Shown: positions 7,942 through 62,920 of the stretch, piece after piece | Layout of the letters: each line of letters opens with the position of its first letter | Position numbering within the stretch: the first letter of the stretch is position 1 | Position numbers and translations under genes: made by a program | Notes under the pieces: generated by a model | Seen by the model: the letters and a program-made list of their open reading frames with translations, nothing else | Database searches by the model: none | What the model was told of the DNA's origin: nothing | Source of the DNA: Eledone cirrhosa | Lineage: Eukaryota | Direction of reading: 5' to 3' | Length of the DNA stretch: 64,000 nt | Assembly (NCBI GenBank): GCA_964016885.1 | Contig: OZ024740.1 | Coordinates: 350,486,001-350,550,000 of the forward strand

Positions 7942-8060
7942 TTAGAACAAAATTATTATTAATGTTTTGCTGTTCATAACAATTGGAATTGAAAAATTAC
8001 TTTTGAAATTATTAGTTATTTTACTAATGCTTAGATATGTAAAAATGAATCAATGTTTCT

Positions 8061-8253
8061 AATAATTGTTTCTGCTTTTGGCACAAGGCCAGCAATTACC
8101 CAATTCATTACTGGTACTTTATTTTATCGACCCCATGAGAATGAAAGGCAAAGTTAACCTCGGCGGTATTTGAACTCAGACCGTAAAGGGACGTAACTCC
8201 ATACTATGAAGCATGGTGTCCGACTCTCTACAGATTCTGCCAATCCACCGCCC
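8061..8253 (-). mobile_element. tRNA-derived SINE (MetaSINE-like core)
   Basis: Minus strand: gggcggtggattggcag (A box) ... gagttcaaat (B box) ... gcctttcat...ggggtcgataaa ... ggccttgtgcc, then an (ATT)n tail. Confidence 0.9.
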
Positions 8254-8533
8254 TAATGTCTGTACGTAATGAGGGAGTGAGAGGGGAGAGAAAGAAAGGC
8301 AGAGGTGAAGTGACGAAGTGACTCTCTCCCCCTCCTCCTCCTGCATCTCCCCATTCGTCACAGCGATAGAGGGGAGGAACGTTAGTGTGTTACAAAGAGA
8401 AAGAGTGAGAGTGAAAGAAACAGACAGACTAAAAGAGAGAGATAGCTGGAGAGAGAGAGAGATAGCAACCACGCGCGCACGTGTTTCCACTGTCGGACTG
8501 ACAGACAGAGAAATTGGTGGTTATATATTATAA

Positions 8534-8588
<55 letters not shown>

Positions 8589-8774
8589 TAAACGGAATAG
8601 AAAATGGTGACGAATTGTTCACAGTTGAAAAATGGTTTAATTAGGAATAAAAGAGTATTAGTGATTGTATGGGTTAGTATTCAGTTGTGGTTTTAAGTTT
8701 TTAAGTTTTTACCGGTTGCGCATTTCTAAATGCTTTTCAAAAATAATTTTGAGAAAGAGTGTCCGTGCTGTTTG

Positions 8775-8775
<1 letters not shown>

Positions 8776-8816
<41 letters not shown>

Positions 8817-8914: not shown

Positions 8915-9089
8915 GTATTTTTTCTCGCGAGTCAGTTCTTTCGTTGCTATGGTCCCCGCGGCTGAATTACCGGTCGCTATCTTCAATTTGCAAGCCCTTT
9001 AAACGGAATGTTATTACTCTTAGGTTTTATACCTTATCGTGTGCTTGGCTGCACTTCTGATTGCATTCGTTCGACTATGCTGTACTTCC

Positions 9090-9148
<59 letters not shown>

Positions 9149-9290
9149 ATTGTTGCAGTTACTATGGCAACGCAAGAGGACTCCAGTCCTCACGTTGACT
9201 TCTCTGTGCATAGCTGATATCTTGTCTCGCTATTAGGACGGCCTCCGTCACAAGTCCATCATCCGTAACTTTGCTGATTATCGATTTATG

Positions 9291-9475
9291 ATAATTGTTT
9301 CTACTTTTGGCACAAGGCCAGCTATTAACTAGTGCATTACTGGTACTTTATTTTATCGACCCCGTAATGATGAAAGGCAAAGTTAACCTTCACGGGATTT
9401 GAACTCAGACCGTAAAGGGACGTAACTATGCTGGAAAGCATGGCGTCTCCACCGATACTGCCAATCTACCGTCCT
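9291..9475 (-). mobile_element. tRNA-derived SINE
   Basis: Same family as 8061-8253. Confidence 0.9.
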
Positions 9476-9838
9476 TATCGATTTGGACACAAGACATTTT
9501 AAAATGGCGTAAACATACAATACAACAGGAGGAAACTGATGATGTTGCAAATCTGTAGAATTTCGGTCGGTCACAATTAGTGTGAGTGAGTACACACACA
9601 CTCACACACACCGACGCGAGGTCAGAGAAAATATTTGATGTTGAGATTAGACCTGTCCAACGTCTTTTACAGCCATTGACAGATAGAGACTTGATAGATT
9701 TATGACCCTGACTGAAGACGATAGCAGTTGGCGTGTTTTGGCTGCTGAATCTTCATATGGGGAACAAAACTCTAGTGAGAGAACATCGTTAGTTTTTCCT
9801 CCCTCATATCAAAGATTTGAAGACAATTCATTAATCAC

Positions 9839-9902
9839 CTGATGAGATCAGTGATAATCGATCATGACCACACGATCGATCTATCTCTTATTGAAACATG
9901 TA
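9839..9902 (+). ncRNA. Decayed hammerhead-like motif
   Basis: CTGATGA...atcgatc/gatcgat hairpin...GAAA-catg-TA (ACATGT palindrome). Stem I does not pair. AATAAA and (TA)n lie downstream. Confidence 0.4.
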
Positions 9903-10037
9903 TATATATATAGTATAACTGAACAAAAAAGAAAAACGAACACAGACATATATGTGTTCAAATCGTAATGGACCAGAATCGCTAAGGTGAATAAAATACT
10001 AACTACAGACAATAGTTTCTAACTCAATACATGCCTT

Positions 10038-10097
<60 letters not shown>

Positions 10098-10184
10098 ATA
10101 TATATGTATGTGTGTGTTTAGATTTATATATGAATATATGTATGTATGTTTTTTATGAGCATATATATATATATATAGAGAGAG

Positions 10185-10703
10185 AGAGAAAATTGAGGTT
10201 GGTAATGGCACATGGAATATATAAGAGACAGAATACTTTTTTGTGAAAAAACATATAATTTTATAAGGTAAGGAAATAATAAAGGGTATAAAAAATGACC
10301 GGTTTCGATGGGTCTGCAAAAGCCATCTTTTCAAATGTTGATTAATATTAAGAAAAATTAATAATAAGAAGAGTTAATATTTGAGATTTGAAAATTCAAG
10401 TATAGAATTCATTGTGGGATTTCATAGTAGTTTTCATCTTGTAGCAACTCGTTGAAAACTACTATGAAATCCCACAATGAATTCTATACTTGAATTTTCA
10501 AATCTCAAATTTTAACTCTTCTTATTATTAATTTTTCTTAATATTAATCAACATTTGAAAAGATGGCTTTTGCAGACCCATCGAAACCGGTCATTTTTTA
10601 TACCCTTTATTATTTCCTTACCTTATAAAATTATATGTTTTTTCACAAAAAGTATTCTGTCTCTTATATATTCCATGTGCCATTACCAACCTCAATTTTC
10701 TCT
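10185..10703. repeat. Near-perfect palindrome, ~250 bp arms, 16 nt spacer, between (TA)n tracts
   Basis: 10185-10436 is the reverse complement of 10453-10703 with only about 1-2 differences seen. Confidence 0.96.
10550..10597 (+). ncRNA. Minimal hammerhead ribozyme with U3:A8 core variant (mirror copy on the minus strand at ~10292-10339)
   Basis: aacat-TTGAAAA-gatgg...ccatc-GAAA-ccgg-TC-atttt. Stem III is the ACCGGT palindrome, the cleavage triplet is GUC, and stem I pairs 4/5. Confidence 0.6.
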
Positions 10704-10734
10704 ATAACCTTCGTTTTGTGTAGTAAATTACACT

Positions 10735-10829
<95 letters not shown>

Positions 10830-10859
10830 ATACATATATGTTACAGGTTGCATTAACAT

Positions 10860-13440
10860 AGCGTGCTTCATTACAAACATCTAAAAATAAAGACCCTTGG
10901 TGAAAAAGGAGAATACAAAGGGGCTTGAATTTGTTGAGACGAGATTTAGATATTCTGGAAAGAAAGAATAAGGGTCATATAATTAAATCTGGAAAGAAGC
11001 AGGAAATAGAAAGTAAATACAACACTAAAATGAAAGGAGTAGATAGAGTTTGGGAACAAATCTTACAAAGATTTATTGCCAAGGCTGGCAATGTCAGAAG
11101 ATATGAGCAACGTATAAAGCAACATAAATTAAACAGAACATTTAATGTCGACCAGAAAAAGTTGTATCATGAATTAAATGGTGAGATAAAATATGATAAA
11201 CTCAACTGCCACGCAGGTGATAACAAAAGATTTTGGAATAGTATTTGGTGCGTGGAGGAAGAACATAATTGAAGAAAATCGGAAAAACAAGGCAGACAAA
11301 ACCGGAAAACATCAAGATCCAAAGAGAGGTAATTGCAAGAGTGATGTAGGAAAATGTTCACATGGAAGGCCCCAGGGCTTGAAGGAATTCAAAGTTTCTG
11401 CTCTGCACAGTATAATTTCGAGTGAAACGAATTACATACTTGAGGGTGAACAGGTAATTCCCAATTGGATGACTAGAGGAAAAACAGTTTGTGCTTCAAA
11501 GACCCAGCGAAGGGTAATGCTGTGGAAAACATTCGCCCTATATCTTACCTTTCAATACTTTGGAAGTTGATAACAAATCTTGTGGCAGAGGGTATGTATG
11601 ATTTTCCTGATAGAAGGAATATTACGAGATGAACAGAATGGGTATACAAAGGAGAGCAGATGAACAAGGGATCAACTCCTAATTGACAAAATGATATCGA
11701 AAGATTGTAAAAGGAGACAGACCAACTTAGCAATAGCTTTGGTTGACTATAAAAAAGCGCACGACATGGTAATTCACACTTGCATTATACAATGCTTGAA
11801 TCTATTTGGAGTCGCAAATAACATAGTGGATTTTATCAGTCGTAGTATGGGGAGCTGCAAAACAGGACTTACATCATCTGGTAAAGTTCTTGGAAAAGAG
11901 ACCAAGAAAGGATTATTCCTAGGTGACCATTGTTCTTTGTTATGTATGGCCCAATTGTATTTTCTGCTGAAAAAAAACAGCTTTCAGTTATCAACTGGAG
12001 GAAAAGAGCATAAAGATCAATAATCTACTCTTTATGGATTACCTTAAGATCCTTAGAAAAATACCAAGATCAGATTGACTCATTAGTCAAATGTTCAGTA
12101 ATAATATAGAATAGAATTTGGAATCAACCAGCATGGAATGTTGATACTGAGGAAACATAAGACAATATCAACTGATGGGATCATATTGGTGGTTGGTCAA
12201 GTCATGAAAGATGTTGAGAATGAAAGATACGATTATCTAGAATATTGGAAGCTGATAAAATCAAAGAAGGTGATGGAGAAGATTTTTGAGACGAAGCAGT
12301 TAAGGCGATTGAAACTAGTATTAAAGTCAGCATTGAATTGAGGAAATAAAATTCTGGCTGTAAACACATAGGTTGTGCCTGTATCGGGATGGAGTGTTGA
12401 ACTGGACACAAAACGAAATGTGGGCTTTAGTCATAAAAACAAGAAGACTTTTACTATGTGTGGTACATTACACCCGAGAAATGACATTGATAGACTGTAT
12501 CTAACAAGGAATATGGGAGGACGTGGTTTAATTGTGTGCGAAGACTGTATACGAAGTGAAGAAAACAGTTTAGGGTGATATGTTTAAAATACTGTAGAAC
12601 CATTATTGATTAATATAAACGACCCCTGGTAATAAAGTATGAAAACGGTATTAAAGAGGAGTACAAAAAGAGGACAAATGGAGAGAAGCTTGATAAGAGG
12701 GGAGAAGAGAATGCATGGTTAAATATCTGGAGAATAGGTGATCGTGTTGATAAGATTAACATATGGGAGTGGATAAGATAAAGTGACTTAAAGGTTGGGA
12801 TGGAGTCTTTGATCTGCGCTGCACTGAATCAATCCTTGAAAACAAATTATGTCAAGTAGTACCATATTGATAAGACTAGTGATTCCCGTTTTTGTATGAG
12901 TTGTAGAGCTAAAGGAGAGACTATATGCTGCATAGTAAGCGAATGCTCCAAACTTGCTCAAAGAGAATGTATGACAACATACCACTCATCGTTCACTGGA
13001 AGCTTTATGAGACGTTTAATATCGAGAGAGCTAAGAAATGGTATGGATATACCCCAAAGAGTGTCATTGATTACAAGGGGGTTACATGAGGTTAAAGTAT
13101 CGTGAGATTTTATGATATAACGTGACAATATGATTGAAGCAAACAAACCGGACATAATAATTGTCAACAAGAAAATCAAATATAGCATTATAATAGAAAT
13201 TATTTTTCATGGTGACAACAGAGTGAGTGAAAAAGAGGGGGGAAGATAAACAAGTATGGAGATTTCAAATGAGAAGTTGTCATATTATGGCAAACGAAAA
13301 AGATAGAAATAGTGTTGTAGTAGTTGGAGCACTCCGAATGGTGTGAAGGAGATTAGGGGTTTAGCTTCGGAAGCTCGGAGTAGAAATAAAATGATACACA
13401 CTACAAATGACCAGAAATTGAGAAGACGAATTGAAACATT
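10860..13440 (+). mobile_element. Degenerate R4/Dong-like RLE non-LTR retrotransposon
   Basis: Fragments: RRYEQRIKQHKLNRTFNVDQKKLY, LVDYKKAHDMV, LHPRNDIDRLYLTRNMGGRGL, C-x2-C...IVSECSKLAQ, NKPDII. Many stops and frameshifts. Confidence 0.88.
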
Positions 13441-14145: not shown

Positions 14146-17100
14146 CACAGTCAACGCATACATGCATACACAGTCAACGCGATCAGTCGCATATTTTGGC
14201 GTGGGATACTATTTATTAAATTTAAGATGAATACTATCTCCGACAGTAATGCCACAACTACAGTCATGTTGAATAACTGGTTATTCTTTTAACTATATCT
14301 TCTGAAGACACCTTTTATTCGAATTCGTAGAGATATCCGACTAAATACATAATTAATTTTACAAGGATTTGCTACAAACAGCATAGCTGAACACAACATC
14401 AACAACAAAATTAAGGAAGTACCGAAGACAACCAACAAGAAAGGTAAACAAACTTTATTCAGTTGTAGCTACAGAAGAAACCGAAATTATAAATTCTCTT
14501 GGATTTGCGAACTTAATAATGATTTATTTAATTGTTATAAAATGGCAAAAAACAATACCTCCATTGGCTATATGAACAGAATGAAGCTACACTGGGAGGA
14601 AATGCACCCAGAGCTAAATTATTTCACAGCGAAACAATTACGCCGACAAGCGACATTTGTTAAACGTAAAAATAAGATAAATAGTATTAATTGTAAGTCC
14701 CCCACAACAGACATGTTATCAACAACACGTGCTACAGGTCGCCATGCTACTAGACTTCCTAGCAACCAGGTAGAACAGCGTCTTGAAACAACTATGCCTG
14801 TAAGAAACTTGACACCACCTGTACCATCTAAGTCTACCTCGAATGCTGGGGAAAACACTATCGATGATAATAATAATCGAAGAAATAATAATAATAATCG
14901 AAGAAATTTGACACCACGTGTACCATCCGAGTCTACCTCGACTGTTTGGGAAAATACTATCGATAATGATAATAATCAAAAGTATAAACAATTGAAAATT
15001 TCCCCCAACGAAATCTTCCAGAGAGAAATTAATTCATGTATAAATTTCTCTCTTGCTGAACGTATTAAAACGACAATGTTTAATAAAAAACCAAATAATG
15101 AAATATTACGTGTTATTGACGAAATAGGGGATGAATATTTACGACGGATAAAAACCCCAACATTTTGGCAAATCAACGCCTGTTTATATGCCCTAGCAAC
15201 GACAGTGAAGCATTATCTTGGTGATAGCAGAGATATTAACAATAACAAAACACCACCAAAAATACCATCATATATAACTAAAATAGAAAAAAAGACTGCT
15301 GACCTACGAAAAACCATAGGATATGTGACAATGCTCCTTACATGCAAACAAACACAAAAAAACCTCACTCCTCAACAACAAAGAGTGAAAAATAAAATAG
15401 AGACGATGTTTGGTAACAGTAGAACCAGACCTCTTCAATATAAGCTGATCACCCTCAAACAAGAATTGAGAGCTGTTAGCGAAAAACGCCGATATCTGAA
15501 GAAGGTAGATGAAAGAAAAGTGCTTAACAAAAGATTCAGACGAAACCAAACATCAGTCTATAGAGATATGAAGAACAAAATAATAAGTGTCACTGAGGCC
15601 CCATCCCAGAAAGACATAGATTCCTTTTGGAGAAAAATATGGGGTGAAAAGAAGAATATCAACCAAGATGCAGTGTGGCTAAAAGAAATCAGAAAGAACT
15701 ATTGCTCCTACACTACAACAAAAACATACGAAATAAGTGAAGGTACCCTTGAGACTGTGATAGGAAAACTCCAAGATAAGAAAACACCAGGAAGAGACAT
15801 TTTTGTCGGCTACTGGTACAAACCGCTGATATTCTATCGGAGGTATCTTACTGACCTCTACCAACAAGTTCTTAAGGGAGATACACTTATACCAGAATGG
15901 TTGACATTAGCAAAAACATTACTGGTCCCCAAGAACAAAGACACCCACTTCGCAAAAACCTACCGACCCATTGCATGTATAAGATGTATACAGCCTTCCT
16001 GAACCTATTCCTCCAAGATCACTGTGAAAATAATAACATCATCACAGATGAACAAGCAGCTGGAAAGAAAGGGTTTTGGGGATGTGCTGAACAACTCCTA
16101 ATCAACAAAACTGCGATGTCGGAGGTGCGACAACTTAGGAGGAATATGGCTACAGTCTGGCTGGACTACAGGAAAGCTTTCGATTCTGTTCCCCAATCTT
16201 GGATGATAGAGGCCCTCCAGCTTGCTAAAGTCTTGTCATTAAACCCCTTGTCCTTTCTACTGAAGAAATGTGAGGGGTACATCATTGGCTCACAGGAGGA
16301 CAGAAATACGAACCTAACCCATAATTTCTTTGTGGACGATCTGAAACTCTATGCCAAGAATATGGATGGGATGAAGAAAAATCTTGACCTGGTTACAACG
16401 TTCTCAAAGGATATAGTAATGGAGTTTGGCCAAGATAAATGCTCATACATGACTGTAAAGCGGGGGAAAACAACAACCCAATCTAGCAACATTGTCATCA
16501 ATGGCCTAACTGTTTCACCGATATCTGATGAGGACAGCTACAGATACCTGGGGATAGATGAGAACATATCCTATAATGGTATCCGTAATAAAGAACGTGT
16601 AACCAGGGAATACTACACCCGATTAAGAAAGATCTGGTCATCGGAACTCTCTACGCAAAACAAAACAGTGGCTCACAATGTGCCTGTCCTAACACCAACG
16701 TTTGGAATACTCAATTGGACGATAGACGAAATCCGAGCAGTTGATGTTGGAACTCGAAAAATACTAACACAGGAAACTTCCACATCAACAGTGTCATAGA
16801 CCGCCTTTACTTGAAACGTAAGCAGGGAGGCAGAGGCCTAACATCAGTCCAGACAACATTTGAATGTCGCATCATATCTCTCCGACAACATCTACGAACC
16901 TCGAAGCGTAGGAGCCCGTTTCTCGAGCAAGTTTATCTGCATGAAACAGATAAGATCATGAGAGTTGGGAAGGAACTCCTCGAGAGATATTCCCTGTGTG
17001 ATAATCAAAAACTCACACCCAGGGAAGTCGCTCAGCAGTATCGCAGTGAATCCATGGATGAAAAAATGCATGCTTATCAGCAAAAAATCATGCATGGATA

Positions 17101-18110
17101 TGTTGCCAGGGAGCTCCAGAGTGAGAGTAATATAGATAAGGAAAGTAGTCTATCTTGGACCAACAACCGCTATATTGGCTCCCACTTTGAAGGATACGCT
17201 TTTGCAATCCAAGAACAGGAGATTAATACGAAATACCTGATTCACAAAAGAGATAGGGATGCAGGCAAAACACCTAGATGTGATAACAAGTGCAGACTCT
17301 GCAGAACTAACATCGAGGATATCACCCATGTCATCAGCAGCTGTCCAAAGATGTCATCGCGGTACTATCTACCCATGAGGCATGATGTAGTGGCCAAAAC
17401 ACTGTACGATGCAGTTCGTAAAAAAGATAGCCCCGATAATAAACACATTAAAAGCTACAGCAATGTGGAAGACATCCATGTACATAATATGAAAGAGTAC
17501 TGGTGGAATGTTCCAGTAAAAACACCAATAAGATGCAGGCATAACAGACCAGATATTATGATATGGGACAGGGAGAAGAAAGCATGCACAGTAGTGGAAA
17601 TTAGCTGCCCAGCAGATGCCAATATAATATCAAAGATTAGCGAAAAGGAGAATATTTATGCAGAACTAATGAGAAATCTGCAGATACTCCACCCTGATTA
17701 CACCTTCAGATTTATGCCTGTGATTATTGGGTCACTGGGATCTGTTAGTAACTGCCTCAATACAAATCTTGAGAAGCTAGGCTTCACAGGAACAGAAAGA
17801 ACACAAGTAGTTAGGAAATTACAAGTGCAATCCATTAATGGAACAGTAAAAATATGCAAAACATTCCAAAAATGTTGCATCTAATAACTGCATATACACA
17901 TGTGCAGATACAAAGCATATACACATGCACACATACAACTCAAAACATCCACTTCCACACATACAATAACATCCATATCTACACATGCAGACATGCATAC
18001 ATAATCTGCCTAGTTGATGTTGTGTAAATTCCAATGAGAGAGTCTTGTGTCTATGTTAGAAACCGACTCTCTCTATTGGTAAAAATTTGTGAAATTATAA
18101 AACCAGAAGA
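14146..18110 (+). mobile_element. Near-full-length R4/Dong-like RLE LINE flanked by (ACAT)n
   Basis: One original ORF now split into 14542-16002, ~15985-16799 and 16811-17884; the 3' end ...aaaccagaaga runs into acatacatacatac. Confidence 0.9.
14542..17884 (+). pseudogene. RT + CCHC + restriction-like endonuclease polyprotein (two frameshifts, RT deletion)
   Basis: YRPIAC, EQLLIN, WLDYRKAFDSVP, FVDDLKLY, YRYLG, GGRGL, CRLC...HVISSC, RHD, RPDIMIWD...VEISCP...KENIY. Confidence 0.93.
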
Positions 18111-20340: not shown

Positions 20341-20889
20341 ATGATGATGATGATGATGATGAAGTTGGTGATGGTGATGATGATGATGGTGGTGGTGATG
20401 ATGGTGATGGTGATGATGGTGATGGTGGTGGTGATGGTGATGATGATAATAATGATGATGATGATGGTGGTGATGATGATAATGATGATGATGAAGATCT
20501 GACATTGAAAATTGATAGAATTTATCACAGGTGTACAATAGACTGCTCTACGTCAAAGGTTACTTGAAAATACGGATGTCAAGTTATATGATGTAATAAA
20601 TCAAGCACTAGCATTGAATCCACCTCAGAGGAATGTTAATCGCTATTATTCACTAACAAAATTATATACAGCTAATGTAGTATCACAGCCTTTACTACAC
20701 GGACAATGTATTATTAATGACTCTCTCCATCGGGTTGACATTCAAACAGATTATAACTGCTTTATTGTGATTGTCAAATTAATAAACGACAAGGTTGCCC
20801 TATTCAAAGTAAACCAATTTAATAACAACAACAACAGCAGTAGCAGCTCAACAACAGCAACAACAACATCAACAATAATAATAATAATA

Positions 20890-21520
20890 ATAATTGTTTC
20901 TACTTTAGGCACAAGGCCAGCAAATTAACCAGTGCATTACTGGTACTTTATTTTATCGACCCCGTAAGGATGAAAGGCAAAGTCAACCTCGGCGGGATTT
21001 GAACTCAGATCGTAAAGGGACGTAACTATGCTGGAAAGCATGGCGTCCGACCCTCTACTGATACTGCCATCCACAATGATTTCTGATATAGCACGAGGCC
21101 AACAATTTGGGGGGAAGGGGAAAATCGATTAAATCGACCCCAGACCGTGACTGGTACTTTATTTTATCGACCCCGTAAGGATGAAAGGCAAAGTTAACCT
21201 CGGCAATATTTGAATTCAGAACGTAAAGGGCCTTAACTCTATGCTGTGAAGCAGGGTGTCCGACGCTTTACCGATACTGCCAATCCACCGCCCTTTAAAT
21301 AATAATTTCTATATAGGCACAAGGCCAGCAATTTTGTGGGAGTGGGAAAGTCGATTAAATCAACCCCAGTGCATTACTGGTGCTTTATTTTATCAAACCC
21401 ATACAATGATGAATGGCAAAGCTAACCTTAGTGAGATTAAAACTCGGAAGGTAAAGGGCCATAACTCTATGCCGAAAAGCATGTTGTCTGACGATCTACC
21501 GATTCTGCCAATCCACTGTT
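20890..21520 (-). mobile_element. Three tandem tRNA-SINE copies
   Basis: Copies at ~20890-21073, 21076-21293 and 21301-21520, next to a (TAA)n tract. Confidence 0.9.
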
Positions 21521-21524
21521 CCAT

Positions 21525-24010
21525 TAAAGGAAGAAGTCCAGGAATATTAGAATAGAATTTGGGCAGAAGAAAAGAAACTACAGTCAAAATACTCCTTGGG
21601 ATGATTGATTATCAACTCACCCCACTTAGAAGAAAAAAAGTGGGAGGTATCAAGCTACAGGATGTAAGATCTACTCTCAGAAACTCAAGCAAATGCAAAT
21701 CTCCAGGAACGGATAAAATTCCTAACTTTTGGTTGAATTCTTTTTCAGATACTGTGATTAGACTTAACAATATTATTATGCAGGAATCAGTTAAGATGCC
21801 CTCTTAGCTAGTTAATCGTGCTACATTCCTACTTCTGAAAAACGAAGAAACAATTGAACCTAAAACCTAAAGACCACAGCAATTCTGTATAATATATTAA
21901 CATCTGCTTTGACCAAATATACGTAGAACATATTAACAGAAAATGGTATCTTCCTCAGTGAGCAACAAGACTGGAATCGCGAGTCCTATGGTTATAAAGA
22001 TCAGCTTCTCACTAATAAGCGCAAGAACTTATCAACAGTTTGGATAGAGTATAAAAAAAGGTTTTGACTGTCTACCCGATAGTTGGATTGAGAAATGCTT
22101 GGAAATTGATAAAATATCTATTTTAAGAAACCTTATGTTTCTTATTATGAAATCATGGAAGACTAACTGGTTTTGAATAATGAAAAGAAATATCTGAATG
22201 AAGGTGATGTTGAAATCTCATGTGATATGTTACAACTCATCTTTTGTTCAGCTTTGATATTCTATCCAGATTACTCAGTGAAACACAATGTGGCTATAAA
22301 GTGTATGAGGATACTATAGGTCATGTTTTTTACATGGAGGATTTAACGCTCTTGCTATTTAAGACAGAACTAAATGCACAGAGTAAGGTAACAGGCACCA
22401 ATACTTTAGAGATCCGTGCAATATGCTACAGTTTTAGCTTTCTGAACTGGATTCTTAAAGAGCTAGCAGGACTAGACAAAAAAAGAAAAATAATGACGCA
22501 GCATTTAAAATACACTACCCATAATCAAATGTACATATATTATACCTACCAAGAAGACAGGCTGGAAGAACTTTATGCAAACTAGAAATCTATTATAAAA
22601 TACAGTATTACTACACAAATATCCAAGGAAGAATAGTGGAGAGTTAATACAAATAGCCATGAAATATGAACAAAAAAAAAGAAGCTGAATTGTTTCTACT
22701 ATTGGCACAAGGCCAGCAATTATCTCAGTGCATTACTGGTACTTTATTTTATCGACCCGTAAGGATGAAAGGCAAAGTTAACCTCGGCGGGATTTGAATT
22801 CAGACCATAAAGGGGCGTAACTCTATGCTGGAAAGCATGGCGTCCGACCCTCTACCGATACTGCCAATCCATCGCCCTTAATTTATGAGGATAATGACAA
22901 CACGGAAGAAACAGCCACAGAAACTGCGAAAAAGATAAAATGGAAATTGAAAAGAAATCTTCAGAATGCTAAATCGATAGCAAGACAATTCCCTGCATAC
23001 CCAATACCTTAAAAAGATGAATTGGGAAGAAATTGATAAGCAAGATTCAGAAAACTGTTTAAGAAGCACTTGTGTAAAGGATTTTTAATTGGAGCATAAT
23101 ATCCTTGCTTCTTCACAAGAATATGAAGTAAAGGGGAAGAAACAATTCACCACATTATCTCTGGATACCTAGTCATAAACAAACATGATAGGGTTGGAAT
23201 TTACGTACATGATAGGGTTGGGATTTACGTACTCTGGAGGTTGTGCCAACACTACGAAATAACAACAGAAAAAATGTGGTACACACATACACCAGAGAAG
23301 TTTTCAGAGAATGACAAAACAACCATAACCTGAGATAGACCAATACACAAGGAGATCAAAATCAATCGGTCCAATACTGCTGTCAAAGACAACGGAAAAG
23401 TTGTTTTCTAACTGATACATCTATCAGGGAAATATATCCATCCCGGAATTGGATCAAGGCCTTTCTTAAACATCACTGCCAGTCCGCCTCCCATTCCAGG
23501 TCGACGAAAAGATGCATAGATCACAAAGTTGTCACAAATAGGGGATAGAGCGCGTATGTCGGAAACCCTGGTCTCACTGTAACGTTTATCGCTACTGACA
23601 TGAGATCAGTGAGCAAGTCATCTTACTTCCAGGACGACTCCATGCCACGTATATTTATAAACCGTACTCTTTGGATTGCAATGTTGGCTTGTTAGAGTTA
23701 AAAGGAAAAAATTGTCTGGCTACTTACACTCCGGGTGCAGTTGTAGATCAAGTAGTTCGATCTTCATATTTGTTTTGAGTACCTTTGTAACGATCTCAAA
23801 GATTTTTGATGGATTGATAGGAAACATAAAATTGAATCTTACAGTAGAAATGTTAGAGAAATTCTGTTTGTTTGGAATGACTAGGATAATACGAAAAGTA
23901 TTAGAGAGAAACTGGGAAAAGAGAAACGACAACATGATACCTAAGATCACTGGATGTAGTCTTTTGTCTTGACTAAACCACGAATTAAGATCAATCCTGA
24001 GGAAAACATG
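21525..24010 (+). mobile_element. Highly degenerate R4/Dong-like LINE with nested insertions
   Basis: KSPGTDKIPNFWL, HVFYMEDL, KHDRVG, C-terminal LEKFCLFGMTRIIRKVLE; interrupted by a SINE (22688-22877) and an unrelated segment at ~23430-23810. Confidence 0.8.
22688..22877 (-). mobile_element. tRNA-derived SINE
   Basis: Full family match. Confidence 0.92.
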
Positions 24011-24739: not shown

Positions 24740-24962
24740 AGGGCAGTGTATTGGCAGTATGGGTACAGGGTCGGACGCCATGCCTTGCAGCATAGAGTTA
24801 CGGCCCTTTATGATCTGAGTTCAAATTCCACCGAGGTTAACTTTGCCTTTCATCCTTACGGGGGTCGATAAAATCAAGTACCTGTCACGCACTGGGGTCG
24901 ATTTAATCGACTTTCCTCTCCCCCAAAATTGCTGGCCTTGTGCCTATATAAGAAACCATTAT
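24740..24962 (+). mobile_element. tRNA-derived SINE, full length, sense orientation
   Basis: A box tggcagtatgg, B box gagttcaaattcc, core, 3' ggccttgtgcc...attatt. Confidence 0.92.
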
Positions 24963-25404
24963 TTAGCGATAACATACGCTTCTGAGCCCCGGTTCGAGTT
25001 GCGTCCCTTGAGGGTCTACCGATAAAATAAGCTTAAAAAGCATGTTTGTCTATTTTGCCCGGACCGGCTACGTAGCCTATTCCATAAATATTACAAATTT
25101 ATTGCTACTCCCAGTCAATATTATTCTGAAAAATATACATATCTATTTTAAAACAACCGTTTATTGAAAAGTGAGATGATAGTGGCCAATGTTTCTTCGT
25201 GGTGAGCCAGATATTTAGTGGTGAAAATTCCTAATAAATAAGGAATGTTGATTGAATAGTTACAAGTATTAAATAATTTTCTCCTTCCGCTGCATATAAC
25301 TAACCTACAATATAATATCTCAAGACAAATGTTTCTCTTTTGGACGATTGTACAAGAAACAAACATAATATAGTCCCATTGTATATTGATGATACACCTT
25401 TTAC

Positions 25405-29431: not shown

Positions 29432-30354
29432 AATATGATGCTATAGTGATATTTTCCATTTATTACTATTGTTAAAATATATATATGCAATCCTTTTGGT
29501 CTTCGTATTTATTATTATATATATATATATATATGTATTTATATATATATAAAATAGATTAGATGAGTTGATAAAACAATCATAAGGGAAAGCGCAAATG
29601 GGATTTTGTAGTCTACAGTAAGACTGGTAAAAAAGAGTTTAGAGTTTAATACAATTAGTAAATTTCCAGTCATGGTAGTTTTACATCACAGAGCATATAT
29701 AAAAATGAATAAAATAAACACGGTTTAATTACATTATTTAATAGATGGACGAACATTGTTTTCAAATACAGAAGTACCGTTTTATTCCTCTGTATTGAAT
29801 TCTTAAGGATCATTAAATAATACATGGTAATTATTTACCAACCGCATATCAGAACATGTCCAAATTCGAAAACGTAAACATCTTAACATATAGTCGGCAA
29901 AACGGCAAAACTAAACTCACAGATTAAAGTTTATTAGTAATAAATATACCGTGTAGTAATTAGTTTGACTCTTAAACCTAATACATGTTTATAGACTCAA
30001 ATAACCATTATAGGAATAAAATTACAACTTATAAATTTAATAATACTTTTAATTAAAGTTTCCACCAATTTTAATACTAAATATATTAAGAAAAACGATA
30101 GAAAAATTATGGAAGCCTAAATTAGTAACAATGCATCAACCAGTAGGATGATTTCTAATTATTAAGAACTATAAGCTGTATTTATAGAGGTGAAAAGGAT
30201 TGTTTATAGGTTATGAGGGTATATTAAGCAAAACACATTCAGCTACATACGTACATATATCAATTCATACAAATATGTAGACTCATATATAAATACATAT
30301 ACACCACCACAGATACCTATAGATATACATATATGTACACACATACACACCTAT

Positions 30355-30396
<42 letters not shown>

Positions 30397-30414
30397 GCAT
30401 TTGAACAAGACCTA

Positions 30415-32494
30415 ATGGATATGATCATGGAGATCAAATTTACAAAACGTAAGAACAATAAACTACAGAATGACATCACGGCACTGCTCAATAATCTAAA
30501 AAACGCCAATGGAATTATTGTTAGAGCAGACAAAACATCAAACGTATATACCATGGATGTGGACACTTACAATAACTTCATCCGTAAGGAATTGCATAAA
30601 AAATACAGGAAAACTAATGAAGCCTCACTTAAAAACATCAACAACTCGGCATGTGATATTGTTAAAAAACTTTGTATTGACGATAGAACGCAACCCTTAA
30701 CACCAGCTATACCATCCTTCAACCTGAAGGACCACAAGGTAAACTTCGATACTAACCCTAATATTAGACTTATATGCCCCTCTAAATCTGATATAGGTAA
30801 AATTAGCAAATATATACTAGACAGAATTATCCCCCAAGTTAAGGTTAAAGTAGAGATTAAACTATGGGGTAACACTCATGAAGCAATAAGATGGTTTAAT
30901 AACATTACTGATAAGAAAAAAATCAAAATTTATTCAGTTTGATATTGATGAATATTATTCCTCAATTTCACCTGATACTCTACATGAAGCTCTTTCGTTC
31001 GCTAAGGATAATTCCGACCTTACGGATGCTGAAATTAAAATTATTATGAAAGCGAGAAAAACTATAGTTAAATTCGATGATAGCTACTGGGTTCGCAAAG
31101 ATAGACCTTCTAATTTTGATATCACTATGGGTTCTAATGATTCGGCGGAAGTAACAGATCTTGTGGGAATTTATATCACCCACAGATTACAAAGAAAATT
31201 CAAGGATCTCCACGGTGGAATTTACCGTGACGATGCGCTCCTATTAGTTAAGCATATGAATAACCAGAATTTAGAAAGGATGCGTAAAAATATCAGAAAG
31301 CTTTTTAAGGAACTAGGATTAAATATTACATTTGAATATAACCTCAAAGAGGTCAATTTCCTTGATGTTACTTTCAATCTCAATACAGATACAATTAAAC
31401 CGTTCCATAAACTAAATGAGAACCTTAAATATGTAAATACGAGTTCTAACCATCCACTCTCTATAATTAAATCCATCCCTAGAAATGTTTCTCTTAGGAT
31501 CTCCCGCCTATCGTCCAACCAACAAACCTTCAAAGAACATACCGAGTATTATGATGATGCACTTAGGAAAGCCGGTCACCTAGATAATATAGAGTATATA
31601 GTCAAAGATCACCAAAACACCCAAAATAAATCACATAGGAGTAAAAATAGCACAGAATCACCACCATACATACACTACCGCAATAGACACAATAATAGTC
31701 GCACACCACCAAACAGAAGGCGATGTAAGGAGTATATCTGGTACAACCCGTTCTATAACAACTCTATTAAAACCAATCTACCCTCAAAATTCTTTCGATT
31801 AGTTAGAAAACACTTTCCAACATCACATAAATATAATAAAATCTTAAACCCTAACACTATTCGACTTTCATATTCAACCGCCCCTAATATTGAACAACAT
31901 ATAAAAAAGCTTAACGCAAAACGGTTGTATAAACGCCTTCCAACACATAACAATACACGTAAAACATTAGCTATAACATCACAAAACAACAAACAACATC
32001 CTGTCCTACATAAGCAACCTCATCAACCCATCCATGGCAATACAACAACGCAAAATTATAATTGCAACTGTGTCCAACCAGGAATGTGTCCGTTGAACAA
32101 TCAGTGTCTTGAACGCAACATCGTATACAAATGTACTATCGAATCGGATAGACAGAAGTGGTACTATGTGGGATCTACAGCCACCTCCTTCAAATCACGC
32201 CTTTATAGACATCGTTATTCGATAAAACATGAAAACCAGCGTTATGTAACAACACTCGCAGACAAGGCTTGGCAGCTGCATGAAAATAACCAACAATTTC
32301 ACCTAAAATGGGATATAATAGTGACTGCCCCCCCATAATCCAATGGACAGGAATTTTGTAAATTATGTAATGTAGAATTATTTTGTATTATGAAATCCAA
32401 AAACATTTTATTAAATAACAGAATAGAGCGATCGTTATACTGTAACCATCGCTTAAAATCTACATTTTCATATTATAAATACTACCAGGATTGA
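30415..32494 (+). pseudogene. PLE reverse transcriptase + GIY-YIG endonuclease
   Basis: ADKTSNVY, QFDIDEYYSSI (frameshift in an A-run at ~30920), MGSNDSAEV, YRDD, FLDVTF, WYNP, CNC...CPL...C, VY...YVG...FKSRL. After an in-frame TAA at 32336-32338 the frame continues as CKLCNVE...LLNNR...CNH. Confidence 0.92.
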
Positions 32495-32967
32495 ACGCCT
32501 GTCTCTATCCCCGTTTGATTGTCAAAATAGATATGAACATTCTTTATTAGCCTTAATTCTATCAACTCTTCTATTATTTACCTTTTAATACAAACTGCTA
32601 TAGATAAAATGAGATTTCTGATTTCTTGATTCAATTCCCTAATGCATATACCAGCTGGCTACTAGCATTGATGTTATTTAGTAGCAATCGAAATCTCCTC
32701 CTTCCCCTATTGACACTTTATAATTAATACTACTGCACCAAATGACCAGCCCTGTCCACTGTCCAGTTGGTCAAGTAGAGATTAAAATTGGCACTCCCAA
32801 AATTCTTATTTAGATTTATTCATGGTATTCTCATTAAAAACCCATTATATACTTGTTTAGCAGTAAATTATTTTACCATCTGTCATATACTATCCCCTCT
32901 GTTCCTTCCTCTTTTACTAATATAAATACTTCAATTTTTCTGATTTTATCCAGTTTATCCAAAATCT

Positions 32968-33076
32968 CTGAAGAAGTGACAACTGATTATACATTTGCTA
33001 TCGAATACTTGCTAACATTATATGATTACGCAAGCAGCGATACATAGGTATTCGGTCTGTTACAGAAACATATGTC
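32968..33076 (+). ncRNA. Hammerhead core in the PLE 3' region (extended stem II)
   Basis: CTGAAGA-a-gtgaca...tgttac-a-GAAA-catatg-TC; ACATATGT palindrome; stem I is poor. Confidence 0.55.
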
Positions 33077-33307
33077 AATACCTAATAAATTCCTTTTTTA
33101 ACAAAAGCACTTTCATTTTATATTCATCCTTTCTATATATATATATATATATATATATAGATTTTGAGTTTATGTTGGTTGTATACCAACACCTCAGTAT
33201 GCAGGCTGGAGCACTCGACGAAGTGCGCAGGTTGGTTTGGTTACTCCGGAGTAGTGTAACATAAAGTTAAATAAAAGTCAAATGATTAAAATTTAGCTTC
33301 GTTTATT

Positions 33308-33362
33308 ACTGCTATATATATTTCAGTGACAGCCATCTTTGGCTGTGACCTCTTCAGGCAGT
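33308..33362 (-). ncRNA. Mirror copy of the intact hammerhead
   Basis: Exact reverse complement of 33464-33518. Confidence 0.85.
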
Positions 33363-33463
33363 TTGAATTAGTATGGTATAGACAAGTACATATGTTATTT
33401 AGGTGTATGACAATATCATACACCTAAATAACATATGTACTTGTCTATACCATACTAATTCAA

Positions 33464-33518
33464 ACTGCCTGAAGAGGTCACAGCCAAAGATGGCTGTCAC
33501 TGAAATATATATAGCAGT
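33464..33518 (+). ncRNA. Intact minimal type-I hammerhead ribozyme
   Basis: actgc-CTGAAGA-ggtcacagcc-aaagat-ggctgtcact-GAAA-tatata-TA-gcagt, then AATAAA. Stem I 5/5, stem II 9/10; predicted cut after 33513. Confidence 0.85.
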
Positions 33519-33562
33519 AATAAACGAAGCTAAATTTTAATCATTTGACTTTTATTTAACTT

Positions 33563-33614
<52 letters not shown>

Positions 33615-44027: not shown

Positions 44028-44492
<465 letters not shown>

Positions 44493-50979: not shown

Positions 50980-51236
50980 TATCTAAGACGTGATTATGGA
51001 GTATTTTGATATTCTCAGACCGGGTCTCTTGCAACAGAAAGAACTTCGCTAAAGGCATCAGCTGATGATTCAGCCCACCACTCCAGAACAGATCAATTCC
51101 ATTAGGTGAACAGGTAATCTTTTATTTAAGATGTGGGTCGAATTCAGGAACAAAAATGCTGAGATGGAATCCAACTATGAACAACGAGAATGAGAGACAA
51201 ATGTCTTAACCACTATTACTATAACTCCTACAACAA

Positions 51237-51611
51237 ATAATTGTTTCTACTTTTGTCACAAGGCCAGCAATTATCCCAGTGCATTATTAGTACTTTATTT
51301 CATTGTCCCCGTAAGGATGAAAGGCAAAGTTAAGCTCGGCGGGATTTGAACTCAGACCATAAAGGGGCGTAACTCTATTCTACAAAACATGGCGTCCGAC
51401 CCTCTACCGATACTGTCCAACAATTTTTGGGGAAAGGAAAAGTCGATTACATCGACCTCAGTGCGTTACTGGTACTTTATTTTATCGACCCCGCAAGGAT
51501 GAACTGCAAAGCTAACGTAAGCGAGATTTGAACTCAGAACGTAAAGGGCCGTAACTCTATACCGCACAGCATGTTGTTCCACGCTCTAGCGATATAGTAG
51601 CCAATCCACCA
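51237..51611 (-). mobile_element. Two tandem SINE copies
   Basis: Family match at ~51237-51416 and 51421-51611. Confidence 0.88.
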
Positions 51612-52820: not shown

Positions 52821-52999
52821 GCGCATGCAAGTCTTATAAGGAACTATTCTAATGAGCATTTTATATTGTTTGGTTTCGAAATATGTAGCAATAAAGTATA
52901 CATGGAATGAAAATACATTTTAGAATTTTGTTAAACATAAATCATATATTACATAAAAGTATTACTGATGAGGAAGACTACGACGATGAGAATAATAAT

Positions 53000-53183
53000 G
53001 ATAATTGCTTCTACTTTTGGCACAAGGCCAGCAAATACCCAGTGCATTACTGGTACTTTATTTTATCGACCCCGTAAGGATGAAAGGCAAAGTTAACCTC
53101 GGCCGGATTTGAACTGAGAATGGCAAGGGCCGTAACTCTATGCGTCAAAGCATGGCATCAGACCCTCTACCGATACTGCCAAT
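53000..53183 (-). mobile_element. tRNA-derived SINE
   Basis: Family match. Confidence 0.9.
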
Positions 53184-58350: not shown

Positions 58351-59089
58351 CCACATCAACTGTATATTTGAACGTTCACAATATTATTCCTTCCAGTAGG
58401 GAAGGATAGGGATGGAGTTTGGGGTGAAGGGATGCAATGTGTATGTAGGGAGGGGGCTTTTGGGAAAATGTGAACAAGAATAGGGAGAATATGGCGAAGG
58501 AGAAAAGGGAAAGAAAAAATGGAGGGGAAAAAGAAAGAAAAAGAGGGAAGGGTGGGGGGACACAGAAGAAAGTTGGAAAAAAGAATGAGGGAGAGGGTGA
58601 GGAGGAGAGGTAGGAGAAATTTAGGGGTTTGATGGAGTGAAAGAATATAGAATAAAAGATTGAGTGTAAGTGCCAGTAGAATAAATAAGTAAATAGATTC
58701 AACACCAAAGAAGTTCCAACGAAGATAATGTGAATCAATTAATGAAAAATAAATAAATTGAATAACATGTAAAAATGTGACAACTAAGTGGAATTGGTGG
58801 TCAACGGAAGAAACGTCTAGCAAATTGATGGTTAATAGTGATAGTCCTTATAATGATGATGATAAGAAAAATAAAATGTGATGGTAATTAATAAACTATA
58901 TATATATATATGCATAACCAAATAAAGCATAATTAAAAAAACTGACAATTAGAAATTAAGTGAATGAGAGATAAGTATGTAAATTAACATTCTTCTGACA
59001 AAGTAAATAATTAGTTAGAAATTGAAACCAAAATTAAAATTGGTCATAATAAAGATGCGGATAATAGTAATAGAGATGACGGGGATAAT

Positions 59090-59500
59090 AATGGTTTCTT
59101 ATATAGGCACAAGGCCAGCAATTTTGAGGAGGGGAAAATCGATTAAATCGACTCAGTGCGTGACTGCTACTTTATTTTATCGACCCCGTAAGGATGAAAG
59201 GCAAAGTTAGCCTCGGCGGGATTTGAACTCAGGCCGTAAAGGGCCGTAACGCTATGCTTCGAAGCATGGTGTTTGACGCTCTACCGATACTGCCAATCCA
59301 CCACCCTTATGACGGGATAATAATGATATTATCCCGTCATAAGGGACGCCATGTTTTGTAGCATAGAGTTATGGCCTTTGTCATTCTGAGTTCAAATCCC
59401 GCCGAGGTTAACTTTGCCTTTATTCCTTACGGGGTCGATAAAATAAAGTACCAGTAATGCACTGAGTAATTGCTGGCCTTGTGCCAAAAGTAGAAGCAAT
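59090..59500. mobile_element. Two divergently oriented SINEs separated by a 19 bp-arm hairpin
   Basis: Minus copy 59090-59306; hairpin 59304-59345; 5'-truncated plus copy ~59344-59500. Confidence 0.88.
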
Positions 59501-59884
59501 AATGATATTGATAAATGATGTCATCTGTAATGAACGCAGCTAACAATGACAATTGGACATGTATCACATTCGACGGAAAAAGGTAAACTGAACTGTTGAG
59601 TTTAAGTTCCTAGTATTTAAACTGTTGTCTAAGTTACCAGAAAGTTCTTATATATTTGAAAGTTCACATATATTTGAAACTTCCAGAATGCTCTAGGAAC
59701 TTCTAGAAAAAAATACTTTAGTTACTCAACGCTGAATCTGTCTGGAATTTACTGACAAATACGTCAGTTACAAAAATGTCGCTGTCCGAGTCACAAAATG
59801 CAAAGTTAGAGGAGAATAGTAGTCTTTTCCTGTGCTTTCTATGCAGAAGCAAGCAGGAAATAGCACTTATTGACCAAAGATAAA

Positions 59885-60147: not shown

Positions 60148-60748
60148 CTAGTTGAGGATTTTCTCTCTCCCATCATGTATTTGCTGTGCAATTTCGCTCG
60201 TGTTAATGATGTGGGGTTGCATATCCTTGATGTACTTCGGCATGCTGTCTATTGACATCCTACCAGACTTATTCGTGGATAGACATACTACCTCACCATC
60301 CCTTGTGCGCTGCTTGAGGCTAACCAAGCCTTCTACAGGTTTCCTCCCAAGTTGTTGGACCTCTGGTCTGCTCTGTCTCTTAGTATACCGGTCTACTATA
60401 TGTCTAATCTTATTTCTAGCTATGGTGAACTGTGCCTCTGTCTCGTAATCTATTTGTTGTGGTATGCAAACCCTTTTATTAAAGGGTAACCTCGTAGGAT
60501 AGATATTACCCATCTTATATGTTTTGTCAGCTGGGTTGAAGAATAATTTCTCTAAGGGGTTGTCATTATATCTATCGTCATAGTTGTGTGTGTTGCTATT
60601 ATTGTTATTATGGTGGTTGTTGTTGTTCCTATCATTAGCATTATTATTATTGTTATGATTGCTAGATGTATTGTTGCTGTGATTGTTAGATGTATTGTTG
60701 TTGTTTTCTCCACCGTTATTGTTGTTGTTACTGTTATTTCTACCATTG
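60148..60748 (-). mobile_element. Inverted upstream fragment of a PLE ORF
   Basis: GLVSLKQRTRDGEVVCLSTNKSGRMS...YIKDMQPH resembles the pre-RT DKS/DKG motif; it abuts the plus-strand PLE body. Confidence 0.6.
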
Positions 60749-62455
60749 TGAACTCAAAGATCTCCTTGATGAGAGCTCCATAGACCTCATCATGTACTCT
60801 CGTTACGTAGACGACATCAATATAGTAATAAGGACATCCCCACAAGAGAGCACTAACAAGTTTGATTTAGAACGTAGCACAATGGAAAGCATCCAGCAGA
60901 TAGCTAATTCCATACACCAGATTATAACTGTAACTATCGACTACCCTTCCAAACACCCTAACAATAGACTACCTGTATTAGACACGGAACTCTGGATTAA
61001 CACTATAGACGAGAGAGCCCAAATTCTCCACTCACACTATGCTAAACCCATGGCCTCCAAATACCTGATACTAAAAAACTCAGCAATGTCCAGTAGTGCT
61101 AAGTTTAGTATTCTGATCGCAGACTTGGTACGAGTGATGAAGAATGTGTCCCGCATGTGCGACCCAACAGAAATGGAAAGACACATCCAACACTTCATCA
61201 ACCGCATGCAGTTCTCTGGCTACAACCAAAGAGACAGAATCAGAGTATACGAAGGAGCCACGAAGAAGTATAAGACCCTCATAGAACTGGACATGAAAGG
61301 AATTTGCCCATTATACAGGAGCAAATGATAGAATAGCTTAGATAGGACTAGACATAAGATAGGGAGAGCCATCTCATGGTACGACAACCAGAGATACCAG
61401 AGTGTCATATTTGTGGACGCTACCCCAGGAGGGAAATTAGCTAACCAGTGTAGAAAGGCCCTGAGAAAGACCCACTTAAAGATTAAGGTGGTAGAAAAGC
61501 CAGGAACCACCATAAAATCCCTGATCAGCAAAACCTACCCTTTTAAGAAAACCCACTGTACTAATAGGAAATGTATCATATGTAAAGTAAACCCCCGGAT
61601 AAACTGTAAAACTAGAAACGTAGTCTATAGCATAAGATGTACAGAGGGTACTTGCAGAAACATGACAACAACATACATAGGCGAGACAGTTCGTAGTATA
61701 TGTGAAAGGATAGACCAACACTGAGGGGAACTAAAAGGACGAAAAAACGGTTCAGTACTATAAGAACATACCAGACAACAACACAACAGTAACATAGACA
61801 ACATAGAAATTAGAATAATATCTAAACATAGAAATGACCCAGCAGATAGGCAAATCAGAGAGGCTAGCCAAATAGAACTTAGAAGGCAAGGCTAAACAGA
61901 AAAAATGAATGGAATAACAATAACACCCAAACAAACAACACTGACCTAAGAGAAGTATAAATAAATAAATAAATAAATACATACACAAGCACAATAACAA
62001 CAAACATATATAAACACACACTAGTAAACTAAGATAGAATACAATAACCAATATACAGTCACCCAAACACGAACACACATCAAACAAAACACTATACACA
62101 AACGCAAACGCATGCGCAGAGAAGACAAAAACATAAACAAATAAATAAATAAATAAATAAATAAACAGACTAAATAAAGATGGCGTAGGCATACAATGCA
62201 ACGGGAGGAAACATAATAGCACCACTGACGATGTTGCAGATGTGCAACGAAAGAAGTTTGTTAGACTATATATGTGTTTGTGTCTATATTGTATCTGTAT
62301 TCTTGACCGTTGGTCAGTCAATGGTAACATTGAGGACCGAATAAATTAAATTAACCGATATAAAGGACACAGAAGCGAAAACCAACCAAAGAGTGAGTGT
62401 GTTCTGATATTAATTCTGGCAATATTATTACACAAATATGACCCTCCCCAAGTAT

Positions 62456-62460: not shown

Positions 62461-62501
<41 letters not shown>

Positions 62502-62528
62502 GTTTGTAGTTGTAAGGCCAAAACAATG

Positions 62529-62889
62529 CAGGTATGGATATAGAATATAAATGCAAATGCAAAATATATTGTTGACAATTAGTCTTTTACCTTAAATTTA
62601 TTTAAATATCCTCAATTTTTGAGATAATATCTCTTCTTCGGAGGGAAGTAAAGTGGTTAATCCAGTATTCTAATTAGCTTGCCAAGTTATGCTGACAGGA
62701 AATAGTATCATACCATTTCCTGTCAGCATGACTTGGCAAGCTAATTAGAATACTGGATTAACCACTTTACTTCCCTCCGAAGAAGAGATATTATCTCAAA
62801 AATTAAGGATATTTAAATAAATTTAAGGTAAAAGACTAATTGTCAACAATATCTTTTGCATTTGCATTTATATTCTATATCCATACCTG
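62529..62889. repeat. Near-perfect palindrome, 175 bp arms, between (TA)n tracts
   Basis: 62529-62703 versus 62715-62889 with about 3 mismatches. Confidence 0.95.
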
Positions 62890-62920
62890 TTGGAATTGGA
62901 AAAAATGTCTTTAGATATAT

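Follow-up and report, generated by a model that had tools for sequence, protein, structure and literature searches.

The palindrome at 10185–10703 and its hammerhead motifs

The window, that is, the whole 64-kb stretch of DNA that was analysed, contains an inverted repeat at 10185–10703, the arms of which (10185–10436 and 10453–10703) are identical in 250 of 252 aligned columns and differ by an extra T at 10237 and by T10378, which stands against an A. The arms are separated by a 16-nt spacer at the inversion junction (10437–10452), itself an imperfect palindrome with 8 of its 16 positions self-complementary. Judging from this anatomy, the right arm (sense on the + strand) would be a pLTR-like 3' end and the left arm (− strand, outward-reading sense) an inverted copy of it. 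An extension of 35 bp (10704–10738, + strand) is found on one arm only and fits the 30–40 bp "tail" of Penelope-like elements (PLEs), and the whole structure lies between two (AT)n microsatellites identified with TRF, at 10040–10177 on the left, the presumed insertion target, and at 10739–10839 on the right. Head-to-head inverted pLTR copies (their orientation being taken from the hammerheads), a microsatellite or AT-rich target and a tail on one end are features of PLE-type insertions, and all of them are present here. The tail renders the ends of the palindrome asymmetric, and a target-site duplication is not readable within (TA)n. The region 10185–10703 lacks the directly repeated tandem units, each with its own hammerhead, of which non-LTR retrozymes consist.

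Each arm carries the same hammerhead motif. The right-arm copy (10550–10597, + strand) is a type I motif, with a cut predicted from its sequence after C10592. Its stem I is made of 10550–10554 and 10593–10597, core positions 3–9 read UUGAAAA (10555–10561), stem II consists of five Watson-Crick pairs (GAUGG, 10562–10566; CCAUC, 10578–10582), G12–A14 occupy 10583–10585, and helix III (ACCGGU, 10586–10591) is followed by C17 at 10592. The identical 48 nt are found on the − strand of the left arm, running from 10339 to 10292 with U3 at 10334. The first-pass annotation had listed the palindrome, the UUGAAAA core, stem II, the ACCGGU helix III and the GUC site, and every one of these is present in both arms; the one-sided 35-bp tail and the (TA)n flanks had escaped it. 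U4, G5, A6, N7, A9, G12, A13, A14, the A15.1-U16.1 pair and H17 are all in place, as is the closing pair of stem II (G10.1-C11.1). The 3:8 pair is Watson-Crick but consists of U10555 and A10560 instead of C3 and G8. That such a swap is tolerated, as the annotation had stated, agrees with section 8 of PMC3088659, which recognises it as an active-compatible covariation that occurs naturally and cites earlier in vitro activity. No unpaired base separates positions 9 and 10.1, G10.1 coming immediately after A9. Helix III is very short and palindromic, as in PLE minimal hammerheads, and is predicted to form a 6-bp duplex between two molecules.

Stem I (U-A, A-U, C x U, A-U, A-U) has four A-U pairs out of five and does not form in the predicted fold. 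The C x U mismatch noted earlier is therefore real, but the impairment that was attributed to it would be a minor handicap compared with burial of the motif in a long hairpin (see below), and a helix I of 2 bp is natural in the PLE hammerheads of Drosophila virilis (PMC4209133).

The motif is far beyond chance. With a descriptor requiring a paired 3:8 core, at least five stem II pairs, a palindromic helix III and four of five stem I pairs, a U3:A8 motif appeared in one of 283,053 dinucleotide shuffles of the arm and a motif with any paired 3:8 core in six, while no U3:A8 match was obtained in 1,456 shuffles of the whole window stripped of its microsatellites. When one stem mismatch was permitted, a match with an A3:U8 core was also seen at +35524. 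Rfam reported no hammerhead in the 64-kb window at the gathering score, and around 10550–10597 none of its hammerhead families matched with E values up to 10, the other matches being weak or driven by microsatellites. The expectation that standard searches would miss this family is correct as far as Rfam is concerned, but Rfam likewise misses a canonical CUGAAGA motif at 33469 in the same window, so that the failure is not due to the U3:A8 swap.

The two cores lie on opposite strands, separated by 221 nt, and point outward, so any single RNA contains one sense hammerhead and its exact complement. The description "paired hammerheads" thus holds in that two motifs exist, but not in the sense of a cis dimer, as each strand has one sense and one antisense copy. 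A double hammerhead in cis was considered and is ruled out by this strand geometry; the palindrome offers no second copy on the same strand. In nearest-neighbour models the read-through RNA is predicted to fold into a 251-bp hairpin (−399 kcal/mol, 97.5% paired on either strand), in which the stem II closing pair would have a probability of about 1e-28. The isolated motif is predicted to favour another helix (−9.0 kcal/mol, z −1.13, with 28 of 200 shuffles as good), and its double-hammerhead form is estimated at −5.9 kcal/mol against −22.7 kcal/mol for the best dimer fold; the corresponding estimates for the canonical motif at 33469 are −37.8 and −43.8 kcal/mol. Because these models ignore the core and tertiary contacts, the argument is weak, yet it speaks against activity of the palindrome copy, and judging from the predicted folds the hammerhead is most likely silent at its locus. 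An RNA initiated at the centre of the palindrome could cleave solely through pairing with a second molecule.

Related motifs, sister palindromes and other repeats in the window

A solitary U3:A8 hammerhead motif is located 1.6 kb from the palindrome, at 8704–8746 on the − strand (core 8740–8734, stem II GCAUU/AAUGC, an A13C lesion, and ACCGGU). It reads from 8746 to 8704 within a unit of ~190 bp (8586–8776, − strand) that lies between two (TA)n tracts. This motif has the same seven-base UUGAAAA core with no extra base, together with G10.1-C11.1 and H17. The stem II pairs are G-C, C-G, A-U, U-A and U-A in the solitary motif and G-C, A-U, U-A, G-C and G-C in the palindrome, so that four of five differ on both sides while all are Watson-Crick, as counted by coordinates. 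When the window was shuffled block-wise 2,480 times, a U3:A8 motif with at most one core mismatch was found twice with any palindromic helix III and never with ACCGGU, by a descriptor that was fixed after the motif had been seen. Its flanks have no similarity to the palindrome (441 of 500 shuffles score as well), which indicates that the solitary motif belongs to a second family and is not a copy of the palindrome. Two further remnants lie in this region. A unit of ~180 bp between TA tracts (8915–9095, − strand) has, behind a short hairpin, an ACCGGU palindrome (8969) and is possibly a further decayed motif of the U3:A8/ACCGGU type. At 9833–9908 a CUGAUGA core is followed by a stem II region of 47 bases, then by GAAA and finally by the palindrome ACAUGU, which runs directly into a TA tract, so that stem I has been lost.

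Two sister palindromes with (TA)n flanks are found elsewhere in the window. The one at 33261–33565 (305 bp) is identical in 150 of 150 columns and carries the outward canonical CUGAAGA hammerhead at 33469, with a AUAUAUAU helix III and, in both arms, a C.C mismatch in stem II (33479); a structured extension of 101 bases is present on its left side alone (from 33161). The other, at 62529–62889, is identical in 167 of 170 columns and has extensions of 30 and 25 bases (62499–62914). Its outward minimal hammerhead (62777) has U4C and G12A in both arms, with position 17 differing between the arms, and 28 of 195,213 shuffles of the arm fit the minimal hammerhead equally well. The sequence of these two arms suggests that their shared changes come either from a decayed template or from arm-to-arm homogenisation.

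Both sisters lie within ~1 kb downstream of a PLE-like RT/GIY-YIG ORF. The ORF regions (~30217–32490 and 60690–61724) contain MGS, YxDD and VY..YxG motifs, which we take to be characteristic of the reverse transcriptase and GIY-YIG domains of PLEs. Pfam gave no family for any of the four PLE-like ORF pieces tried, and 91 of the 92 homologues of the ~30217–32490 ORF are unnamed, so the PLE label of these ORFs rests on the motifs, as they are known from PLE RT and GIY-YIG domains, and on the unnamed homologues. The first PLE-like RT plus GIY-YIG ORF extends over 30217–33135 but is interrupted, near 30900 by a frameshift and at 32338 by a stop, and degenerate hammerhead pieces follow it near 32968 and 33066. 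The second (60690–62300) is more decayed, with a degenerate hammerhead at 62225, and its 3' region shows a match to 9501–9555 (86% over 36 bases), where a decayed hammerhead half is found at 9536.

Taken as a whole, the window consists of AT-rich repeat DNA of an animal, in which mariner-like, non-LTR and Penelope-like remnants occur. Long and nearly intact ORF pieces of a non-LTR retrotransposon occupy 14353–17884 (RVT_1, E 6.6e-11), with a C-terminal region that is presumably restriction-enzyme-like, and a more decayed relative of this element lies at 10904–12023. An internally deleted mariner-like element is found at 1399–2295, with inverted ends of 104 bp (95/104 identical), and a MITE-like structure at 44028–44320, with inverted arms of 69 bp (66/69), a 155-bp core and TA repeats on its right. 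A SINE-like repeat of ~190 bp is abundant (8056–8257, 9285–9478, 20872–21518, 22688–22880, 24740–24965, 51236–51611, 52983–53183, and 59087–59506), with certain copies in tandem or as inverted pairs. For the endonuclease ORF at 54929, the best named homologue comes from Argonauta hians, with 50% identity across 65% of the query (three hits among 2,807 candidates), which weakly suggests a cephalopod host.

Origin of the palindrome and of its core

The palindrome is most likely a real but ordinary repeat remnant and not a new kind of ribozyme system. The best explanation, and one we hold with considerable though incomplete confidence, is that it is a truncated, ORF-less Penelope-like insertion that was inverted by fold-back and that carries the hammerhead of a U3:A8 lineage, silent in this copy. 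What the sequence shows is the anatomy, a motif beyond chance and a second U3:A8 motif; the PLE origin, the fold-back mechanism, the family-level fixation of U3:A8 and the inactivity are inferences. The two sisters, which share the plan of the palindrome, were counted as support for the PLE reading of 10185–10703. PLE insertions are described as having an inverted 5'-truncated copy beside a pLTR, a tail of 30–40 bp that is often one-ended, and (TA)n targets (PMC8557442); a 31-bp tail on one inverted pLTR has been noted, together with frequent head-to-head palindromes that were interpreted as self-priming (PMC3846280), and the tail has been traced to two reverse-transcription start sites (PMC11167929).

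On this basis, a PLE RNP most likely nicked the (TA)n tract, and reverse transcription would have begun near the 3' end of the pLTR, 111 or ~146 nt downstream of the hammerhead cut site, these two alternative start sites leaving the 35-bp tail on one arm only. About 250 nt further on, synthesis would have turned back, by self-priming or by a template switch at the central imperfect palindrome, and a second, inverted copy would have been laid down, which would produce the head-to-head inversion and duplicate the hammerhead once with the bases of its template. The parent lineage would use U3:A8 in place of C3:G8, with a palindromic helix III suited to dimer cleavage. In the parent element, a dimer could be cut between tandem pLTRs on the same strand by way of the ACCGGU helix (PMC6765202).

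No PLE coding sequence was detected in the palindrome by blastx against the 92 PLE-like homologues (best E 2.5), and nothing below E 0.98 was obtained for its flanks. Matches by tblastn were confined to 30397–32491 and 61581–61751, with none at the palindrome. The lack of a linked RT plus GIY-YIG ORF is expected for a heavily truncated copy, but it makes the PLE membership indirect. A putative coding remnant at the centre of the palindrome (VATR*KLL*, on both strands and faintly like a PLE C-terminus) was rejected, since blastx gave E 2.5 at best. Further copies of the palindrome family were found neither within the 64-kb window nor, with two exact patterns, in GTDB genomes, nor in phages; a plasmid match to the arm (47 bases, 85%, AT-rich) was judged to be due to chance. 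Scans for sigma-70 promoters and terminators remained at background level and are irrelevant to an animal genome.

An alternative that we consider unlikely, while giving it more weight than those that follow, is that the palindrome represents an ORF-less head-to-head class of PLE, either mobile as a whole unit or with its arms converted, and that a lineage of several families is fixed for U3:A8 and ACCGGU without the extra base. If an ORF-less palindrome class did exist, the divergence between arms and that between arm and consensus, compared across thousands of copies, would allow the way in which PLE inversions arise, and selection on PLE hammerheads, to be tested directly in the genome.

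The U3:A8 core might also be private to this locus, under the same PLE origin, the template having decayed before the inversion or the arms having been homogenised later, so that the ribozyme would be dead and the pair accidental. Two routes would lead there, namely C3U plus G8A, or the deletion of a single base from a core of eight, such as UUGAAGAA. It is true that the extra base after A9 is missing, so that the core may stem from an 8-base core by a one-base deletion, that stem I has its C x U mismatch, that apparent lesions are present in both arms of the sisters (U4C and G12A at 62777, and the C.C pair of stem II at 33479), and that Fig. S3 of PMC4209133 has one motif with a U3.G8 core among its 56. 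The remaining core bases, the five Watson-Crick pairs of stem II and the helix III palindrome are intact, however, and by a crude likelihood ratio the inheritance of U3:A8 is preferred to decay through two targeted transitions, by a factor of ~15 (at 30% divergence) to 1,000 (at 5%). An unrelated element nearby, moreover, shares the seven-base UUGAAAA core without the extra base as well as ACCGGU, and its equal lack of the extra base points to a lineage trait. In view of this evidence we find private decay rather improbable, and from the sequences of the two families U3:A8 is probably a real lineage trait. The double change had earlier been read as a sign of selection, with reference to its presence in both arms. 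That argument fails, because the arms are one template copied twice and U3:A8 in both of them is one observation, and because the sisters share apparent lesions in both arms, so that both-arm presence adds nothing; what the proposal gains instead is the second U3:A8/ACCGGU motif at 8740.

There is a similarly small chance that the palindrome is a mobile, non-autonomous head-to-head pair of pLTRs, copied whole by a PLE enzyme in trans and carrying a hammerhead on either strand. Three such palindromes occur within 64 kb, pLTR sequences are reported to suffice for mobilisation in trans (PMC3846280), and arms that are 98–100% identical yet share lesions would also be expected from repeated copying of a palindromic template. 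The three palindromes are, on the other hand, unrelated in sequence and differ in arm length (252, 150 and 170) and in their tails; a fold-back during a one-off insertion accounts for them without a new class, and a perfect hairpin of 251 bp would be a poor template in which the ribozyme is blocked. Use by the host, either as a hairpin RNA that feeds small-RNA silencing of the PLE family or as a switch that holds the ribozyme off until an RNA is initiated at the centre, seems very improbable to us: the extensive pairing of the read-through RNA on either strand would suit it, but the surroundings are microsatellites and decayed repeats.

We give almost no credence to an assembly or library fold-back artefact, for although the inversion is near-perfect and such structures are noted to trouble assemblies (PMC8557442), there are two differences between the arms, a one-sided tail and flanks that are unlike on the two sides, and all three long palindromes examined have hammerhead-bearing sequence at their centre, a preference not expected of an artefact. 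Just as little is to be said for a DNA transposon of the foldback or MITE type whose AT-rich sequence resembles a hammerhead by chance. This reading would explain the long terminal inverted repeats in a TA target and the missing Rfam match but neither the rarity of the motif among the shuffles nor the one-sided tail, unexpected for a MITE, and Rfam misses the canonical motif at 33469 as well.

Comparison with known hammerheads and PLE insertions

The novelty implied by the first-pass annotation does not stand, since both the core variant and the opposite-strand arrangement have already been published. The U3-A8 class was sought with its own descriptor in 2014, when about 1,300 matches were reported in Schistosoma mansoni, and dual minimal hammerheads 100–700 bp apart on opposite strands were described in the same paper, which includes a UUGAAAA+A family of PLE hammerheads (PMC4209133). 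Among the 56 motifs of its Fig. S3, two have U3-A8 (one of them UUGAAAA plus A) and one has U3.G8, two lack the unpaired base that PLE minimal hammerheads typically have between positions 9 and 10.1, and the three mollusc rows all have CUGA cores (PMC4209133).

Literature searches returned only PMC4209133 for a hammerhead with U3-A8 and nothing for one with C3U and G8A. For a cephalopod with Penelope-like elements and a hammerhead ribozyme only PMC8557442 matched, and for non-autonomous head-to-head palindromic Penelope elements only a plant review did. A genome paper on the giant squid gives Penelope repeats and 235 Hammerhead_1 matches, its available part making no mention of core variants (PMC6962438). 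A PLE hammerhead of a probable cephalopod with U3:A8 plus ACCGGU was not found in the accessible parts of these sources, and Lunse et al. (2016) or the supplements of a 2026 preprint (see below) may cover it.

The significance of the locus is modest, in that it extends a known U3-A8 PLE variant to another animal lineage, probably cephalopod, though the evidence for this is weak. None of the 56 motifs that the 2014 survey lists combines U3:A8 with an ACCGGU helix III (PMC4209133). Natural swaps from C3:G8 to U3:A8 in more than one family would be evidence for selection on PLE hammerhead catalysis, but one truncated copy cannot settle this matter. PLE hammerhead variants reportedly cleave as dimers (Lunse and colleagues, 2016). 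The insertion of PLE hammerhead mutants is described as unaffected in vitro (PMC11167929).

The closest known counterparts of the hammerhead are the Cercyon PLEs of Schistosoma mansoni (Sm3, Sm4), with which it shares the type I fold, the U3-A8 core, a short stem I and a palindromic helix III, as well as an occurrence in dispersed truncated copies and in opposite-strand pairs 100–700 bp apart (221 nt here). It differs from them in that the listed Sm(4) motif is UUGAAAA plus one A, whereas here no unpaired base precedes G10.1, in that helix III includes a palindromic insertion of 2 nt (ACCGGU), and in that the host apparently belongs to another animal group. The PLE hammerheads with a small palindromic helix III of the Drosophila virilis, mosquito and shrimp type have C3:G8 in those listed (PMC4209133). 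With the inverted-pLTR insertions of endonuclease-bearing PLEs, as presented in PMC3846280, PMC8557442 and PMC11167929, the palindrome has in common the head-to-head inversion, the palindrome at the junction, the 30–40 bp tail on one end and the AT-rich or (TA)n target, but no RT-EN ORF was detected between or beside its arms at 10185–10703. The animal non-LTR retrozymes, according to the accessible part of a preprint (bioRxiv 10.64898/2026.07.22.740005), are likewise non-coding, have type I hammerheads and are thought to derive from PLE pLTRs; they consist, however, of directly repeated tandem units, each with its hammerhead on the same strand, and the structure at 10185–10703 is an inverted pair.
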